DNA of 64,000 nt from Escherichia phage ECBP1. The number at the start of each line of letters is the position of its first letter. The first letter of the stretch is position 1. A program made the translations under genes and the position numbers. The notes beneath the pieces are model-generated. The model was not told the DNA's origin. It saw only the letters and a list, made by a program, of their open reading frames with translations, and did no database searches. The DNA is taken from the sequence record NC_018854.1, one strand, 5' to 3'. Shown here piece after piece: positions 23,489 to 30,542 of the stretch.

Positions 23489-26068
23489 ATGCGTTACATC
23501 ACCTCTCAGGATACGGGTAAGTATCCTATTGCTATCCTCGGTCATCAAATCCGAAGGGAGGAGATGATTAAAACCTACCTGCTGCCTAATGACCTAAGCA
23601 TGGAAGATTTCATCTTCATCGAACTTCATTCTGCCCCCGGCAAGAAGAAGACTCCTGCAAGGGAGATTAAGGAGTTCATACAGCAGGAGTTGCAACAAGT
23701 ACTGGACGATGCAGAGACTCAATACATTATCTGTACCGATTCTGACTACTTCAAAATACTGACTAAAGAAGCAAAAGCAGAGGCTAACCTCGGCTACGTT
23801 TGTGATTCAGTATGGGGTAAGCAGAAGGTTATCTATGCACCTAGCTACAGACAGGTCTTTTATGACCCTCCTGTAGTGAAATCTAAGATTGCTCAGGGTA
23901 TGGATGCATTACTTAACCACATACGTGGGCAGTATGCAGAACCAGGTCAGGGAATCATTGAGTTTGAGGCTTATCCAGATACCCCAGAGAAGATTAAAGC
24001 CTGGCTAGACCAGTTGCTTGAGATGAATAAGCCATTGGCTATAGACATCGAGGCATTCGGTTTAAAGCACTATAACGCAGGTATAGGAACAATTACGTTC
24101 TGTTGGAGTAAGACACAAGGCATAGCCTTTAATGTGGACTACGAGCCGATTCCTGGAGCTACTGAAGCACCATACGGGCGTATCAACAGAAATGATGTTG
24201 TTCGAAATCTTCTTCGTGAGTTCTTCATTAAGTACACTCAACGGCAGATGTATCACAACATTAGCTACGACGTGTATGTGCTTATCTATCAATTATTCAT
24301 GGATAACCTGATTGATACAGAAGGCTTACTGCATGGTATGGAAATCATGCTACGCAACTGGGACTGTACTAAGTTAATCACCTACCTGGCTACTAACAGT
24401 TGTGCTGGTAATCACCTTAGTCTAAAAGACCAGGCTCAGGAGTATGCTGGTAACTATGCTCAGGATGACATTAAAGACATTCGTCTTATTCCTAATGAGC
24501 AACTCTTACGTTACAACCTCATTGATGGTTTATGTACCTGGTACACCTATGAGAAACACTGGGATACTCTCATTGCTGATGACCAACTAGATGTTTACAA
24601 CAACATCTTTAAGCCAGCCTGTGAAGATATTATCCAGATGCAGTTAACTGGTATGCCCATGAATATGGATACCGTTAACCAAGTAGCTAAGGAGATGGAA
24701 ACTGACAGGAACCAGGCTCTGAAAACTATTCGTGAGTCTAAGCTCATGAAGAACTTTACCCTGATGCTTCGTCAGGAATGGGTAGATGATAAGAATGCTA
24801 AGCTCAAGAAGAAGCAGGTAACACTTGCTGACTGTGATATCGAGTTTAATCCTAACTCCGGTCCACAACTACAGAAGCTATTATTTGACTATATTGGCTT
24901 ACCGGTTCTTGGTCTTACTAAGAGCAAGCAACCTGCTACTGACGGTGACACTATTAAAGCACTGCGTACACACACGCAGAGCGAAGATGTTAAGGAACTG
25001 CTCAATGCACTTATCGACTATAAGCTCGTGGATAAGATTATCACTTCATTCATCCCGGCTTTCCGTAATGCACAACCGGGACCAGATGGATGGCACTACC
25101 TATTCGGCAACCTCAATCTGGGGGGAACGGTTTCTGGTAGATTATCTGCCTCTGAGCCAAACCTGCAAACTATTCCGTCTGGCTCCAAATACGCCAAGAA
25201 GATTAAGAAATGCTTCGAAGCACCCCCAGGTTGGATCTTTTGTGGACTGGACTTTGCAAGCCTTGAGGACCGTATCTCAGCTTTAACTACTAAAGACCCT
25301 AATAAATTGCGTGTGTATACTGACGGGTTCGATGGGCACTCCCTCAGAGCTAAATTTTATTTCGGCGAGCAAATGCCGGATATAGATGATTCTGTGGAAA
25401 GCATCAACTCTATTCAGAAAAAATATAAAGCCTTACGTAGTGAATCGAAAGCTCCCACTTTCTTATTGACTTACGGTGGGACTTATATGGGCTTGATGAA
25501 AAACTGCGGTTTCCCGGAAGGGAAGGCTAAGTTAATCGAATCCAGATACCATGAAATGTATACGGTTAGTGATGCCTGGGTTCAAGCTAAGCTAGACGAT
25601 GCTGCCAAAACTGGTTATGTTACTGCCGCATTCGGTTTGAGAGTGCGTACTCCTTTACTGGCTCAAGTATTACGTGGGACATGTAAGACTCCGTATGAAG
25701 CAGAAGCAGAAGGCAGAACTGCTGGTAATGCTTTAGGGCAAAGCTGGTGTCTACTAAATAACCGTGCTGGTTCAGAGTTTATGCGTAAAGTCAGAGCCAG
25801 TGAGTTCAGGTTAGATATTCGTCCTAGTATTCATATTCATGATGCTCAGTACTTCATGATTCGTGACAACATGGATACTTTGCAATTCACGAACAAGCAC
25901 TTGGTTGAAGCCGTTAACTGGCAAGACCATCCTGATATTGCTCACCCAGAAGTTGGTTTGGGTGGGGAACTATCCTTGTTTTACCCAACGTGGGCTAACG
26001 AGATTGAAATTCCAAATCACGCTACCCCAGAAGAAGTTCATCAAATAATTCAAAAGGCATTCGCATGA
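23489..26068 (+). CDS. family A DNA polymerase with 3'-5' exonuclease domain
   Basis: Exo I-like LAIDIEAFG; motif A-like GLDFASLEDRI; motif B-like RSESKAPTFLLTYGGTYMG; motif C-like IHIHDAQ. Confidence 0.85.
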   Translation: MRYITSQDTGKYPIAILGHQIRREEMIKTYLLPNDLSMEDFIFIELHSAPGKKKTPAREIKEFIQQELQQVLDDAETQYIICTDSDYFKILTKEAKAEANLGYVCDSVWGKQKVIYAPSYRQVFYDPPVVKSKIAQGMDALLNHIRGQYAEPGQGIIEFEAYPDTPEKIKAWLDQLLEMNKPLAIDIEAFGLKHYNAGIGTITFCWSKTQGIAFNVDYEPIPGATEAPYGRINRNDVVRNLLREFFIKYTQRQMYHNISYDVYVLIYQLFMDNLIDTEGLLHGMEIMLRNWDCTKLITYLATNSCAGNHLSLKDQAQEYAGNYAQDDIKDIRLIPNEQLLRYNLIDGLCTWYTYEKHWDTLIADDQLDVYNNIFKPACEDIIQMQLTGMPMNMDTVNQVAKEMETDRNQALKTIRESKLMKNFTLMLRQEWVDDKNAKLKKKQVTLADCDIEFNPNSGPQLQKLLFDYIGLPVLGLTKSKQPATDGDTIKALRTHTQSEDVKELLNALIDYKLVDKIITSFIPAFRNAQPGPDGWHYLFGNLNLGGTVSGRLSASEPNLQTIPSGSKYAKKIKKCFEAPPGWIFCGLDFASLEDRISALTTKDPNKLRVYTDGFDGHSLRAKFYFGEQMPDIDDSVESINSIQKKYKALRSESKAPTFLLTYGGTYMGLMKNCGFPEGKAKLIESRYHEMYTVSDAWVQAKLDDAAKTGYVTAAFGLRVRTPLLAQVLRGTCKTPYEAEAEGRTAGNALGQSWCLLNNRAGSEFMRKVRASEFRLDIRPSIHIHDAQYFMIRDNMDTLQFTNKHLVEAVNWQDHPDIAHPEVGLGGELSLFYPTWANEIEIPNHATPEEVHQIIQKAFA

Positions 26069-26370
26069 CCAAAAGTACTAAAGAAACTGTTGTCAGAAAA
26101 TATCATTGGATGGTAGCAGCACAGGTAGTATTCCAACTTCCTAAAGTGGATGATGGTTCCCTGCTTACCATGAACACAATGTTGCTCACAGATGAACCTT
26201 ACGTGACCTATAAAGATTTGGCTCGTGCCAATCACTCTCTGAAAATCAGTCTGGACCAGCGTTTCGACACTTCAGTTGACTTGAAAGACATCGTTTATCT
26301 GTCTCTTAGCAACCTGGGTCTGATGTCTGAACCAGAGTTCCAGGCAAACATGATTCCCAAGGAGAAATAA
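26065..26370 (+). CDS. hypothetical protein
   Basis: 101-aa ORF. Confidence 0.45.
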   Translation: MTKSTKETVVRKYHWMVAAQVVFQLPKVDDGSLLTMNTMLLTDEPYVTYKDLARANHSLKISLDQRFDTSVDLKDIVYLSLSNLGLMSEPEFQANMIPKEK

Positions 26371-26846
26371 TGGCTAAGCTCTCCGGTGGATTGAATAACT
26401 GGTATGTAGTACCAGTTAAGCACCCTCAACGGAAAGAGCAAGAGCCATACCAAGCAGAGTGTGAGGATATTATCCAAGCACTGGGCATGACCTTCGATGA
26501 AGGTTGTGCCTTTAAAGCTCTATGGCGAAATGCTGCTGCCCGTATGGGTAATGGTAAACCTGGAAACACTGCTGTTTACGATGCAGAGAAGCTGGTTCAT
26601 TATGCTAATCGTATTCTTGCTAAGGAGAAGTTAGCTAGTGAGTTATTTCCGGATCCTGCTACGAATGTAAATACCGTTGGTAGTTATTGGCACCATACAA
26701 ACAATGGTAAACCTCACTTCACTAAAGAATTTTCATTCATTGAGATTGTTTATAAAGATGAACGAGATGAAATTTACTCGTATAACTTCAATCAGCTAAG
26801 TGAAATTAAGTGGAACTGGGTTCACAGATACAGGATTACTTACTAA
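26370..26846 (+). CDS. hypothetical protein
   Basis: 158-aa ORF. Confidence 0.45.
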   Translation: MAKLSGGLNNWYVVPVKHPQRKEQEPYQAECEDIIQALGMTFDEGCAFKALWRNAAARMGNGKPGNTAVYDAEKLVHYANRILAKEKLASELFPDPATNVNTVGSYWHHTNNGKPHFTKEFSFIEIVYKDERDEIYSYNFNQLSEIKWNWVHRYRITY

Positions 26847-26911
26847 TGAAGATAACCAACAACCATGATGTATCACTGGCCCTGGCTGTATGGCTATTGC
26901 ATGACGAGTAA
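26846..26911 (+). pseudogene. 21-codon diverged duplicate of the 5' end of the nuclease gene at 27412
   Basis: Translates MKITNNHDVSLALAVWLLHDE versus MKLTNKHDVSLALAVWLVTDD of the intact gene. Confidence 0.45.
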
Positions 26912-26917
26912 CTAATT

Positions 26918-27415
26918 ATGAAACAGAGGATTGCCCATGACAGGCTTTTACAGCTTGTTAGTTATGACCCTATTTCCGGGATTTTTACTCGTAGGAATAC
27001 CGGAAAGGTATCTGGTTACCTAATGAAGAGTGGTTACGTTCAACTCCGTGTGGATAGTGTGTTGTACTATGGGCATATCCTTGCATGGTTCTATGTGCAC
27101 GGTGTATGGCCTACGGATAGAATTGACCATAAGGACAATATTCGCCATCACAACTGGATAGATAACCTCAGAGAAGCGACCCACAAGCAGAATAACCAGA
27201 GTGCTGTTTTATCTAAAACAAACACATCTGGATTTAAGGGGGTATCCTTTTCAAAGAATTTAGGTAAATACAGAGCAACTATTTGGGTTAACAGTAAACC
27301 AATTACATTAGGTTTTACAGATGACCCAAGAGAAGCTGCTGTTCTCTATGATGAAGCTGCTATAACTCATTATGGTGAGTTTGCTAAAACTAATAAGCAA
27401 TTGGGACTGTTATGA
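26918..27415 (+). mobile_element. HNH-AP2 homing endonuclease gene
   Basis: HNH-like HKDNIRHHNWIDNLREATHKQN followed by AP2-like GFKGVSFSKNLGKYRATI...FTDDPREAAVLYDEAAITHYGEFA. Confidence 0.65.
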
Positions 27416-28392
27416 AACTTACCAACAAACACGACGTTAGTCTTGCACTAGCTGTATGGCTTGTAACGGATGATTATGATTATGTAGACAATCCTAAGTA
27501 TCTGTCTGTTACTACCTTGCTTAAGCCCATTAAGCAAATAGTCATGAAGCATCGTGTAGATCTTAGTGACCAGTCAATTGATGTTATGGATTTCGTCTCC
27601 ACATCAATGGGTACTGGTTTACATGATTCTATCGAGAAGGCCTGGAAGCTGGGTCATAAGACTGCATTGAAAAAGTTGGGTTATCCTCAACGAGTAATTG
27701 ATGCAGTAGTCATTAACCCAACCAAAGCAGACTTTGATGCTAACCCTGACCTTATCCCAATCTACATTGAACAGCGTGGAACCAGGATAGTTAAGGGTTG
27801 GACTATCGGTGGTAAGTTCGACATCGTAACAGAAGGTCTGCTGCAGGACTTTAAGTCTACCTCAACCTATTCCTGGGTTGCTGGTTCCCGTGATGATGAA
27901 CATAAGATGCAAGGCAGCTTGTATCGTTGGATTCACAACGACATCATTACCGAAGATGTAATCCGTATTAACTACATCTTCACTGACTTCATGAAACACA
28001 TGGCTAATAGCAATCCGAACTATCCTGCTAATCGTATTATGCATAAGGATATTCCGTTGCTATCTGTCGAGAAAACTGAACGTTGGGTAGAAGAGAAGAT
28101 TCACCTCATTGAAAAGTACTGGAATGCACCTGAAGAGGAAATTCCTGAATGTACTGATGAGGAGTTGTGGCGAACAGAGCCACAGTTCAAATACTTCTCT
28201 GATGCTTCTAAGGTAGATGTACCTGGAGCCAGAAGTACCAAAAAATTTGACGATATGGCATCTGCTCGTATCTTCATGGCTGAAAAAGGTGGCAAGGGTG
28301 CTATCAAGGTCGTGGAGGGGCAGGTTAAGCGTTGTCTATACTGCCCTGTCGCGTCCATTTGCAAACAAAGAGAGAGATATTTTCCATCATGA
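27412..28392 (+). CDS. PD-(D/E)XK nuclease with C-terminal Cys cluster (Cas4/RecB-like)
   Basis: GGKFDIVTEGLLQDFK (D...E.K pattern) and C-terminal RCLYCPVASIC. Confidence 0.5.
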   Translation: MKLTNKHDVSLALAVWLVTDDYDYVDNPKYLSVTTLLKPIKQIVMKHRVDLSDQSIDVMDFVSTSMGTGLHDSIEKAWKLGHKTALKKLGYPQRVIDAVVINPTKADFDANPDLIPIYIEQRGTRIVKGWTIGGKFDIVTEGLLQDFKSTSTYSWVAGSRDDEHKMQGSLYRWIHNDIITEDVIRINYIFTDFMKHMANSNPNYPANRIMHKDIPLLSVEKTERWVEEKIHLIEKYWNAPEEEIPECTDEELWRTEPQFKYFSDASKVDVPGARSTKKFDDMASARIFMAEKGGKGAIKVVEGQVKRCLYCPVASICKQRERYFPS

Positions 28393-30542
28393 GTATTGAC
28401 CTGACCGGAGTCACTCACCACCCTGCAATTGAAGAAATTGTAGACGTGCTGTGTAACAAGACACAAAACAACGACAGAGGATTCTTCCGTGTCGAAGTAG
28501 CCTACTTCCTGGCTAAAATGGCATCCTGCATGGGTGCAACCATTGTCACTAAAGACCGTGGTGACTTACCAGTCAACATTTACGCTATGGCATTAGCAAC
28601 GTCTGGCTTCGGTAAAGGTCACTCGGTAAATATTATTGAAGACGGCTTCATGACTGGCTTCCGTAAACGTTTTATGGAAGACACCATGCCCGTCATTGCA
28701 AATGACCGTTTATGGAAGATTGCTAACGAACGTGCTGCTCGACAAGGTACAGACCAGAATGATGAGTTTGATAAAGTCGAAGCAGAGTATAAACGTGCTG
28801 GAGCATATCCGTTTACGTTTGACTCTGGTACTCCACCAGCAGTTAAACAGCTACGACATAAGCTGTTAATGGCTGGGTGTGGTTCAATCAACCTACAGAT
28901 TGATGAAATTGGTTCAAACCTGTTGGCTAACACGGATGTATTAACTCTGTTCCTGGAATTATATGACCAGGGTAAGGTTAAACAGAAGTTAACCAAGAAC
29001 ACTGCTGAAAGTGTTCGTGGTGAAGAACTGGATGGTAAGACTCCAGCTAACCTGTTGCTGTTTGGCACGCCAAGTAAGCTACTAGATGGTGGTCAGACCG
29101 AAGACCAGTTCTATGACTTTCTGGATACAGGGTATGCACGTCGTTGCTTATTTGCCATTGGGCATTTAGATAAACGAGCACATGCAACAATGTCCCCAGA
29201 AGAAATCTACCGTAACCTGATTAAGCAGGATAACGTACAGTCTCTGGGTAAGTGGGCTAATCACTTCCACAGTCTGGCTGATCCAAACTTGTTCGGCTTT
29301 AAGATGGTTGTAGAAGATGCTGTGGGTATTGCTCTGATTACTTACAAGATCGATTGTGAGAAACAAGCAGAAGCTATGGCTGACCACGAAGAAATTCGTA
29401 AGGCTGAAATCTCCCACCGTTACTTTAAAGCTCTTAAGCTGGCTGGAGCACTGGCATTTGTTGACCAAAGTTCATTCATTGAAATGTCTCATCTTAAACA
29501 AGCAATCTTGCTTGTAGAAGAATCCGGGGCAGCATTCCAGGGTATTCTCAATCGTGAGAAAGCCTATGTGAAGCTGGCTAAGTATATCGCTTCTGTAGGT
29601 AAAGAAGTGACTCATGCTGACTTACTGGAGTCGTTGCCGTTCTATAAGAGTGGCAATGCAGCTCGTAATGAGATGATGACTCTTGCTACAGCATGGGGAT
29701 ACAAACAGCACATCATCATTAAGAAAACTTTTAATGAAGGTATTGAGTTCTTCCGTGGAGAGACTCTGAAAGAGACTGACATCAATGAGATGATAGTGGC
29801 CTATAGTGATAGCTTTGCTTATGACTACATTGGTGAACGTGTACCGTTCGACCAGTTGCATGTATTAACCCAAGCTCCCGGTATGCACTGGGTAAACCAT
29901 CACATGAAGAACGGGCATCGTTCCGAAGAGAACGTTATTCCAGGATTTAACATGATTGTTATTGACTGTGATGGTGGAGTACCACTGCATACGTGCCATG
30001 AACTGATGAAGGAATATAAGTTCATGACCTATACCACTAAACGTCATTCTGATGAAGAGAACCGCTTCCGACTGATTATTCCAATGAACTATGAGTTACA
30101 CCTCGACACTGAGGAATACAAAGAGTTTATGAATAACGTTATGTCTTGGCTACCGTTCGAAACGGATGAATCTGCTAACCAGCGAGCCAAGAAATGGATG
30201 TCCTGTGAGACTGGTTCCTATCATTACAATCTTGAAGCAAATCTGTTGGACGTGCGTGACTTTATTCCTCGTACTAGTAAGAACGAGCAGTTCCAGAACC
30301 AGATGAAGGAAGTACAGTCGTTGGATAATCTGGAGCGTTGGTTCGCTAGTCGTATTGCTACCGGTAATCGTAATAATCAAATGATTAAGTACGCACTGGC
30401 ATTGGTTGACAGTGGTTGGGATTTTGCCCAAGTACAGCAAGCCGTCCACTCATTCAATAAGAAACTGGCTAATCCATTACCAGATGATGAATTGAATGCA
30501 ACCGTAATGGTCACCGTGGCTAAACGCTTCGCTGGCAAATAA
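28389..30542 (+). CDS. DNA primase-like replication protein (N4 gp43-like by position)
   Basis: Start set at the ATG overlapping the upstream stop (track 28332); VIDCDGG acidic motif; size and synteny. Confidence 0.45.
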   Translation: MSIDLTGVTHHPAIEEIVDVLCNKTQNNDRGFFRVEVAYFLAKMASCMGATIVTKDRGDLPVNIYAMALATSGFGKGHSVNIIEDGFMTGFRKRFMEDTMPVIANDRLWKIANERAARQGTDQNDEFDKVEAEYKRAGAYPFTFDSGTPPAVKQLRHKLLMAGCGSINLQIDEIGSNLLANTDVLTLFLELYDQGKVKQKLTKNTAESVRGEELDGKTPANLLLFGTPSKLLDGGQTEDQFYDFLDTGYARRCLFAIGHLDKRAHATMSPEEIYRNLIKQDNVQSLGKWANHFHSLADPNLFGFKMVVEDAVGIALITYKIDCEKQAEAMADHEEIRKAEISHRYFKALKLAGALAFVDQSSFIEMSHLKQAILLVEESGAAFQGILNREKAYVKLAKYIASVGKEVTHADLLESLPFYKSGNAARNEMMTLATAWGYKQHIIIKKTFNEGIEFFRGETLKETDINEMIVAYSDSFAYDYIGERVPFDQLHVLTQAPGMHWVNHHMKNGHRSEENVIPGFNMIVIDCDGGVPLHTCHELMKEYKFMTYTTKRHSDEENRFRLIIPMNYELHLDTEEYKEFMNNVMSWLPFETDESANQRAKKWMSCETGSYHYNLEANLLDVRDFIPRTSKNEQFQNQMKEVQSLDNLERWFASRIATGNRNNQMIKYALALVDSGWDFAQVQQAVHSFNKKLANPLPDDELNATVMVTVAKRFAGK

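Follow-up and report, generated by a model that had tools for sequence, protein, structure and literature searches.

This analysis concerns the locus around gp42 in Escherichia phage ECBP1 (NC_018854.1), of which one 64,000-nucleotide (nt) stretch, the window, was analysed; all coordinates are window positions. The phage is a Gamaleyavirus of the G7C/Bp4 group of N4-like phages and is 98% identical to Bp4 and PD38 over 2.5 kb. Between gp41 and most of the exonuclease gene gp42 lies a free-standing gene for a putative homing endonuclease of the HNH type, flanked by two related versions of the same 63 nt: one constitutes a 21-codon mini open reading frame (mini-ORF) and the other the start of gp42. 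The features, each with the evidence for its assignment in brackets, are as follows.

26370–26846, + strand: gp41, homologue of N4 gp41 (list of ORFs; PHROG 9919; annotated as gp41 in G7C, St11Ph5 and Bp4)
26846–26911, + strand: mini-ORF, comprising native gp42 codons 1–21 (26846–26908) and a TAA assigned to the cassette (26909–26911) (identity to uninterrupted gp42 starts)
26909–27474, + strand: inserted cassette, 566 nt (ATG-to-anchor distance in carriers versus endonuclease-free genomes)
26918–27415, + strand: free-standing HNH_3/AP2-like gene, putative homing endonuclease of 165 amino acids (aa) (Pfam, PHROG)
27412–27474, + strand: putatively imported, recoded replacement of gp42 codons 1–21 (42/63 nt identity to the resident copy)
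27475–28392, + strand: resident rest of gp42, codon 22 to stop (length as in St11Ph5; PHROG 2139)

The genes are closely packed. The ATG of the mini-ORF at 26846 overlaps the gp41 stop codon (TAATG), and its 21 codons, MKITNNHDVSLALAVWLLHDE, end at a TAA at 26909–26911. A 6-nt spacer (CTAATT) separates this stop from the endonuclease ATG at 26918, and the TGA of the endonuclease gene overlaps the ATG of gp42 at 27412 (ATGA), from which the 326-aa gp42 ORF begins with MKLTNKHDVSLALAVWLVTDD. The original prediction had placed the mini-ORF directly upstream of the HNH gene within 26846–27474, and both the sequence and the list of ORFs bear this out. The mini-ORF and the endonuclease ORF share a reading frame, with 72 nt from ATG to ATG and TAA CTA ATT between them. 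Readthrough of the mini-ORF stop would join the gp42 N-terminal peptide to the endonuclease; the frame match could be a coincidence.

The endonuclease matched Pfam HNH_3 (PF13392) with E = 2.8e-9 and 36.9 bits against a cutoff of 24.8 bits, and PHROG 99 (HNH endonuclease) with E = 9e-59. At its C terminus the Pfam AP2 score of 19.2 bits fell below the 33.3-bit cutoff, and there was a weak match to the AP2 protein WRI1 (7wq5, E = 0.005). The gene is free-standing, with its own ATG and stop, and stop codons separate its ORF from both pieces of gp42. The product of gp42 matched the exonuclease family PHROG 2139 (E = 9e-151). Its confident AlphaFold model (predicted local distance difference test score, pLDDT, 90.9) has Cas4 SSO0001 (4ic1) as the best fold match in the PDB, followed by RecE and Exo5, and four cysteines are invariant in the family; on this model, gp42 (N4 gp42) is a Cas4-like PD-(D/E)XK exonuclease.

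In-register comparison of 26846–26908 with 27412–27474 gave 42 of 63 identical nt (66.7%) and 16 of 21 identical aa. The mirroring of the first 21 codons of the nuclease gene thus stands as originally predicted, at an identity slightly above the 60–65% given at that time. When the downstream copy was scanned over both strands of the window (127,876 positions), the upstream copy was the best non-self match (z = 7.3; background mean 16.1, sd 3.6; runner-up 33/63), and in a repeat search no direct repeat of the region ranked above this pair. Codon by codon, 6 of the 21 are unchanged, 10 carry synonymous differences only (among them a serine change from TCA to AGT) and 5 change the amino acid; 10 of the 14 codons able to vary synonymously do so. 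The downstream copy encodes LVTDD where N4-like phages nearly always have LLHDE, and LVNDD, LLTDE and LLADD variants are also present in the N4-like gp42 family.

The origin of the two copies became apparent when the locus was aligned with relatives that lack the endonuclease gene, the comparison by which the original prediction could be checked and by which the insertion junction was mapped. In seven such genomes (PE007, St11Ph5, PhAPEC5, IME11, pSb-1 and two metagenome contigs) gp42 begins with the mini-ORF sequence and continues uninterrupted, the native 5′ end running on as ...GAG|TATGATTACGTAGAC...; the empty junction of the PE007/St11Ph5 type reads ...GGCTATTACATGAYGAG|TATGATTACGTAGAC.... 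Where the endonuclease gene is absent, the conserved TATGATTA anchor lies 63 nt from the native ATG; in carriers of the endonuclease gene, 629 nt separate the two (626 nt in 24-32N and EC1-UPM). All carriers show the native codons 1–21, TAA-CTAATT, the endonuclease gene, the divergent second copy and then TATGATTA. The same layout was found in eight reliable carriers, namely the window phage, Bp4, PD38, PW8, G7C, Mimir124, 24-32N and EC1-UPM, and the locus is therefore a presence/absence polymorphism at one fixed site, with the same junctions in the eight carriers and an empty site in at least seven sequenced relatives. Among the 50,697 phage records from GenBank that were searched, all two-copy records have the endonuclease gene and the other Gamaleyavirus-like records are single-copy; among 80 N4-like loci from IMG/VR, the duplicate was found solely in the two carriers. 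In endonuclease-free genomes the mini-ORF sequence appears solely in frame at the start of gp42 and never as a second copy, so that the condition under which the original prediction would fall, a mini-ORF kept without the endonuclease gene, did not arise.

The native copy is 57–63/63 identical to the gp42 starts of endonuclease-free alleles. The copy joined to gp42 is only 42–45/63 identical to resident alleles, yet stands in frame with codon 22 onward, and the next 900 nt of gp42 are 91%–98% identical across relatives, so the edge of divergence at the junction is sharp. Since the seven endonuclease-free relatives start gp42 with the mini-ORF sequence, the mini-ORF is, by this alignment, the stranded native 5′ end of gp42. 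Judged from the same junctions, a 566-nt cassette (TAA, CTAATT, endonuclease gene, replacement gp42 5′ end) is inserted inside gp42 after codon 21, and in the working gp42 codons 1–21 are imported. As TA is common to both junctions, the cassette boundaries can be placed only to within 2 nt. The rebuilt gp42 of 981 nt (326 aa) has the length of gp42 in the endonuclease-free St11Ph5, so that on the sequence a full-length gene is re-created without splicing, protein splicing or gene splitting. These results change the original prediction in two respects: the mini-ORF is the resident sequence and not the diverged import, the copy joined to gp42 being the foreign one, and the insertion lies within coding sequence and not between genes. 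Homing import of an endonuclease gene with a flank from another allele is supported by the 566-nt insertion with its 63-nt divergent gp42 5′ end; that the enzyme cuts the empty allele is part of the proposal. The mini-ORF is unannotated in every carrier record, and the foreign origin of the first 21 codons of gp42 is likewise unremarked there.

The junction falls inside the most conserved N-terminal motif of gp42, LAVWLLHDE|YDY, with the near-invariant LAVWLLHDEYDY; N5, V15, W16, D20, Y22 and D23 are invariant in the family. As residues 1–21 are ordered in the model, forming a strand plus a helix, and the junction lies in this motif, a gp42 without its 5′ end would probably be defective.

Ten carrier sequences were read. 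Over gp42, one of them (L009) matches the window at 100%, and another, Uz-1, was left out as an assembly artefact. The 165-aa endonuclease ORF is intact in nine of nine carrier sequences, with ∼11 aa changes at 9.5% nt divergence, which indicates, at the level of sequence comparison, that the endonuclease is under purifying selection. The groupings of the endonuclease gene do not follow the alleles of gp41. Between G7C and Mimir124, identity is 98.2% in the endonuclease gene and 65.6% in gp41, whereas between EC1-UPM and the window phage it is 90.5% in the endonuclease gene and 98.3% in gp41. It follows that either the cassette has passed from one background to another or recombination has exchanged the backgrounds around it. 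Near-isogenic pairs without and with the cassette were also present: PE007 versus the window phage (gp41 99.1% identical) and IME11 versus 24-32N (gp41 97.9%, distal gp42 98.2%). In all pairs gp42 is somewhat more variable over its first 300 nt, and this is not diagnostic because it also holds for pairs in which both members are without the endonuclease gene.

The 3′ half of gp41 (26630–26846), directly upstream of the insertion, is itself hypervariable. Comparison with sequences L001–L015 and L089–L093 showed at least three allele types that are ∼65%–70% identical to each other, and pSb-1 and L097 have a short, unrelated C-terminal half of gp41; the N-terminal half of gp41 and gp42 are >90% conserved. 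A hypervariable segment beside a homing site recalls the statement in PMC10448857 that "nuclease genes occupy boundaries of genetic exchange".

The record of phage vB_EcoS_Uz-1 (OP312987.1) at first appearance is a carrier with a native-type junction, and was rejected as such because its sequence resembles a consensus built on a reference. Its length equals that of Bp4 (72,583 bp), from which it differs by 167 substitutions and 0 indels over 3.5 kb. An 838-nt block identical to Bp4 (L090, locus positions 1125–1963) covers the variable 3′ half of gp41, the mini-ORF and the endonuclease gene and reaches into the imported copy as far as nt 50; the last 13 nt, beyond this block, switch to the native type. 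From this pattern, the Uz-1 phage itself looks like one without the cassette. Cassettes of this kind give rise to local artefacts in phylogenies and can lead reference-guided assembly astray, of which Uz-1 is an apparent example.

Among the genomes compared, the imported copy accompanies the endonuclease gene, except for partial tracts in four endonuclease-free genomes with chimeric gp42 5′ ends. These are of three kinds, each native in the distal part and of the imported type next to the junction. K57alpha1.2 and NAN33P5 have native nt 1–9 followed by 54/54 identity to the imported copy of the G7C/Mimir124 type. In L097 the crossover is near nt 35, and in L098 it lies within the shared core GCTGTATGGCT, so that the imported type is left only in the last 13 nt. 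Because each chimera matches one particular present-day cassette subtype, and K57alpha1.2 is closest to the carrier Mimir124 (gp41 94%, gp42 98.5%), the chimeras are most simply derived from carriers, and by their sequences they look like scars of cassette loss or partial conversion. Two routes could lead to them: recombination between the copies, which would delete the endonuclease gene, or repair of a break templated by the imported copy. Both would leave imported sequence adjoining the junction, and the resulting alleles are predicted to resist the enzyme. One genus thus provides a series comprising a susceptible allele (meta_72588), a carrier (Mimir124) and scarred alleles with three breakpoints (K57alpha1.2/NAN33P5, L097 and L098), which can serve as a panel for mapping the recognition site and for asking whether loss of the element can leave resistance. 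In the record of Klebsiella phage vB_Kpl_K57alpha1.2 (L006, OY979416.1), the polymerase-gp41-gp42 region is annotated as portal protein, Rz-like spanin, endolysin and holin; these features are on the opposite strand and all pseudo, and the annotation appears offset from the sequence.

As to the source of the imported copy, sequence comparison favours an unsampled lineage over an origin in situ. One lead came from a metagenome pattern scan, which returned two scar alleles, no carrier and one distant natural LVTDD allele. The latter, the one natural LVTDD allele to be found, lies on the minus strand of a short contig (L096, Ga0256842_1040672, 1761 bp) whose gene order is N4-like, with DNA polymerase, two small ORFs and gp42; the native start of this gp42 reads ...SVSLAMAVWLVTDDYDY. 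Its codons are identical to the G7C-type imported copy at 33 of 39 nt, including the AGT serine, and L096 is a possible relative of the donor lineage. A search for relatives of L096 gave one distant match, which carries LLHDD. Elsewhere, an exact-pattern scan of viral contigs found only the G7C genome and L009, a contig of 69,855 bp, and a protein word search with the N-terminal 60 aa of gp42 gave no donor candidate.

The alternative, that a local 63-nt duplication arose at the insertion and its downstream copy diverged rapidly under pressure against self-cleavage or repeat recombination, with no import, draws on the failure to find a donor lineage in the 50,697 phage records, IMG/VR or the metagenome scan. 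The imported copy moreover resembles no other sampled N4-like genus more closely than it does the resident copy, and the cassette subtypes differ at 7 of 63 positions within the imported stretch, so the stretch does evolve. This origin is nevertheless improbable. The copies are 33% apart, whereas the adjoining gp42 and the endonuclease gene differ by no more than 10% across the same genomes; the serine change from TCA to AGT and the changes of near-invariant residues H19T and E21D would be hard to reach stepwise; an LVTDD motif with similar codons occurs naturally in the distant contig L096; and the mitochondrial precedent discussed below has been ascribed to horizontal acquisition (PMC3630166).

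Taken together, the locus is probably best explained as a whole by a free-standing HNH endonuclease gene inserted after codon 21 of gp42 in a cassette that restarts gp42. The stop codon of the cassette closes the displaced native 21 codons into an orphan mini-ORF. The enzyme would recognise the uninterrupted native sequence across the junction, a site that in carriers would be destroyed twice, as its native left half now meets cassette DNA and its right half follows the recoded copy; with both half-sites abutting different sequence, the carrier would be protected from its own enzyme. Recombinational loss would be suppressed by the 33% divergence of the two copies. Expression may be provided by the operon. 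Ribosomes loaded at the gp41-coupled native start would translate the mini-ORF, stop 6 nt before the endonuclease ATG and reinitiate, and the ATGA overlap would then feed gp42, so that both genes would join the translational-coupling chain of the operon. The Shine-Dalgarno sequence of the endonuclease gene is the weakest of the operon (−2.5 kcal/mol). No RNA structure was found around the mini-ORF and the endonuclease start (minimum free energy z = 0.18). A search for a promoter or terminator borne by the cassette gave fewer promoter-like sites than in shuffled sequence, with none placed for the endonuclease gene or gp42.

A single event probably gave rise to the cassette, namely the one-sided repair of a break at codon 21/22. 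The right end of the break would have been copied leftwards from a diverged donor through the 5′ end of gp42 and the endonuclease gene upstream of it, and the left end joined illegitimately at the TA microhomology; the cassette would then have spread or recombined among Gamaleyaviruses. Such one-sided repair would account for both copies ending at the same codon. Parker, Belisle and Belfort reportedly described illegitimate one-sided repair during intron acquisition in T4 in 1999.

Several observations weigh against this account. The endonuclease genes differ by 5%–10%, about as much as the genomes and the flanks, which would also fit long vertical residence with occasional loss, and neither single-nucleotide polymorphisms linked to the endonuclease gene nor a co-conversion tract was seen downstream of the junction. 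No donor in which the imported 5′ end stands natively beside this endonuclease gene was found in the phage collection, IMG/VR or metagenomes, and among the 80 IMG/VR loci no 5′ end other than those of carriers exceeded 45/63 identity to the imported copy. The likeness of L096 is only suggestive because the search pattern had fixed 26 of the 39 nt compared. The chimeras are explained equally well by simple repeat recombination and say nothing directly of cleavage. Homing activity is proposed from sequence, with the recognition site placed by the insertion point, and the translation of the mini-ORF and reinitiation are deduced from the geometry of starts and stops.

Some of these points are what would be expected if the cassette were an old, vertically inherited and possibly domesticated resident without active homing, its patchiness reflecting losses and recombination at the hypervariable gp41. 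The matching divergence of endonuclease gene and flanks, the lack of a co-conversion tract, the presence of three kinds of loss or scar allele and the recovery of two scar alleles but no carrier in the metagenome scan all agree with this. It is considered unlikely, as the endonuclease is intact and apparently under purifying selection in eight of eight reliable carriers, which is unexpected of a defunct selfish gene, and as the near-isogenic pairs with and without the cassette (PE007/window phage and IME11/24-32N) and the discordance of endonuclease and gp41 groupings in both directions speak for movement or exchange.

A different proposal, compatible with the restarting cassette and adding to it, is that the mini-ORF is itself under selection as a leader, a regulatory upstream ORF or a small peptide. 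In every carrier it is open up to the same TAA; the sole indel among carriers, a 3-nt deletion at its end in 24-32N and EC1-UPM, keeps the frame; and it is in frame with the endonuclease gene, with its stop 6 nt from an ATG served by the weakest Shine-Dalgarno sequence. The polymorphisms of the mini-ORF are, on the other hand, synonymous variants of functional native alleles, which recombination can pass on without selection, the indel is a single event, and RNA structure was absent (z = 0.18), so that selection on the mini-ORF is doubtful, if less so than the purely vertical history of the cassette. By far the least probable is a self-splicing intron, an intein or a translational-bypass element with the mini-ORF as exon 1 of gp42. 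Phages with short N-terminal exons beside endonuclease genes are known (PMC10448857), and in the related phage PhAPEC5 a true group I intron carrying an HNH gene interrupts the DNA polymerase. In the window, TAA closes the mini-ORF and the downstream ORF has full length by itself; splicing is unnecessary because a complete, ATG-initiated duplicate of codons 1–21 is present. This reading was rejected, as no Rfam intron (RF00028) was detected at E ≤ 5 in 26300–28000, whereas the PhAPEC5 control was found (E = 6e-8).

The cassette that restarts gp42 may be an instance of a distinct and undescribed strategy, a "gene-restart" cassette, by which a phage homing endonuclease would settle inside an essential gene: a recoded 5′ end would make the insertion harmless, with no need of introns, inteins, bypass or split subunits, and destroy the element's own target; the stranded native start would act as a ribosome relay for the element's translation; and loss would leave an immunising scar in place of a restored susceptible site. 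This generalisation is offered tentatively, with somewhat less than even confidence. If it is true, the resistant scar would break the classical homing cycle of gain, decay, loss and reinvasion.

Other homing sites in the genus illustrate how different the arrangement is. In PhAPEC5 (L100, NC_024786.1, 22000–25900), the DNA polymerase is cut at SASEPN|LQTIPSG by the group I intron with its HNH gene (locus positions 2168–2837), whose RF00028 match (E = 6e-8) is below the gathering score; the site corresponds to approximately residue 558 of the window polymerase (about 25160), and the polymerase gene of the window (23489–26068) is uninterrupted. Endonucleases encoded in group I introns come with a ribozyme core and spliced exons, neither of which is present at gp42. 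In Bp4 (L005, NC_024142.2), DNA polymerase and primase are annotated as partial or split, whereas the 98% identical window has intact single ORFs (23489–26068 and 28389–30542), and the splits in Bp4 are probably sequencing or annotation artefacts.

The junction between gp42 and gp43, where the gp42 stop overlaps the primase start (ATGA, 28389–28392), is a second homing site in the genus and is empty in the window. In PhAPEC5 and EC1-UPM, whose sequences were read, HNH genes lie exactly between the overlapping gp42 stop and primase start, and BLAST and annotation place HNH genes at matching gp42/gp43 positions in ZQ2, PBM-2/3, UE-M6 and Moo19. The enzyme at this site in PhAPEC5 is a paralogue with 49% aa identity, in the same operon and with the same downstream ATGA coupling. 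Unlike the gp42 cassette, the insertions in PhAPEC5 and EC1-UPM are clean, from ATGA to ATGA, and intergenic, without duplicated coding sequence. A flanking coding duplicate was absent in seven other tests of free-standing HNH insertions covering six genes, namely two at the Gamaleyavirus gp42/gp43 junction, two in KIL4 (tested singly and as a pair), one in FSL SP-012 and one in Kc283 (scores 24–32, null ∼29, positive control 88). On this small sample, the layout of the gp42 cassette is therefore not common. The literature searched, which did not extend to the original G7C paper, gave no account of the feature in N4-like phages nor of end-replacing endonuclease cassettes in phages.

Free-standing endonuclease genes inside phage genes have been described: mobE in nrdA of Aeh1, mobA in T4 gene 39/60 and a seg-like gene in gene 43 of phage 25 (PMC2988022). 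As in these cases, a free-standing gene occupies a critical, conserved part of a phage replication or nucleotide-metabolism gene whose function is kept without splicing. The mobE/nrdA type differs in that two polypeptides are required there and nothing is duplicated, whereas here the 326-aa ORF is complete and the 21-codon piece redundant. In T4, mobA is reportedly accompanied by a 50-nt bypass cassette of gene 60, and in T3/T7-like phage and cyanophage an endonuclease gene and a neighbouring intron are said to home collaboratively. The gp42 cassette resembles these in that a companion sequence disrupts the target and an expression trick keeps the target gene working, but there the companion is a bypass element or a ribozyme intron, and here it is a recoded duplicate of the gene start.

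The closest parallel is found in the mobile endonuclease ORFs (mORFs) of fungal mitochondria, known from atp6 of Allomyces macrogynus and from atp6, atp9, cox2 and nad3 of Glomus sp., which provide foreign C-terminal ends and whose duplicates are 63.5% identical (PMC3630166). In both systems a conserved coding sequence is interrupted by an endonuclease ORF, on either side of which stands a copy of the displaced gene end; the divergent copy borne by the element is expressed, while the native end is orphaned and remains near-identical to that of relatives; and the duplicates are ∼63%–67% identical, with mostly synonymous differences. The systems differ in that mORFs replace the 3′ (C-terminal) end of the gene and the present cassette the 5′ end. 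The endonuclease ORF of an mORF stands downstream of the hybrid gene, often in phase, whereas here it is upstream and the three ORFs are separate, linked by stop/start contacts. Moreover, mORF enzymes are of the LAGLIDADG or GIY-YIG type and reside in mitochondria, and the enzyme here is HNH, possibly with an AP2-type domain, and encoded by a lytic phage. By analogy, the gp42 cassette is a 5′ mirror-image variant of the mORF type and not a member of it, and would be the first phage and 5′-end counterpart found of the mitochondrial elements with foreign C-terminal gene ends. Beside introns and inteins, gene splitting and bypass, it would represent a fourth way for a selfish endonuclease to sit, without killing its host, in the most conserved part of an essential-looking phage gene.

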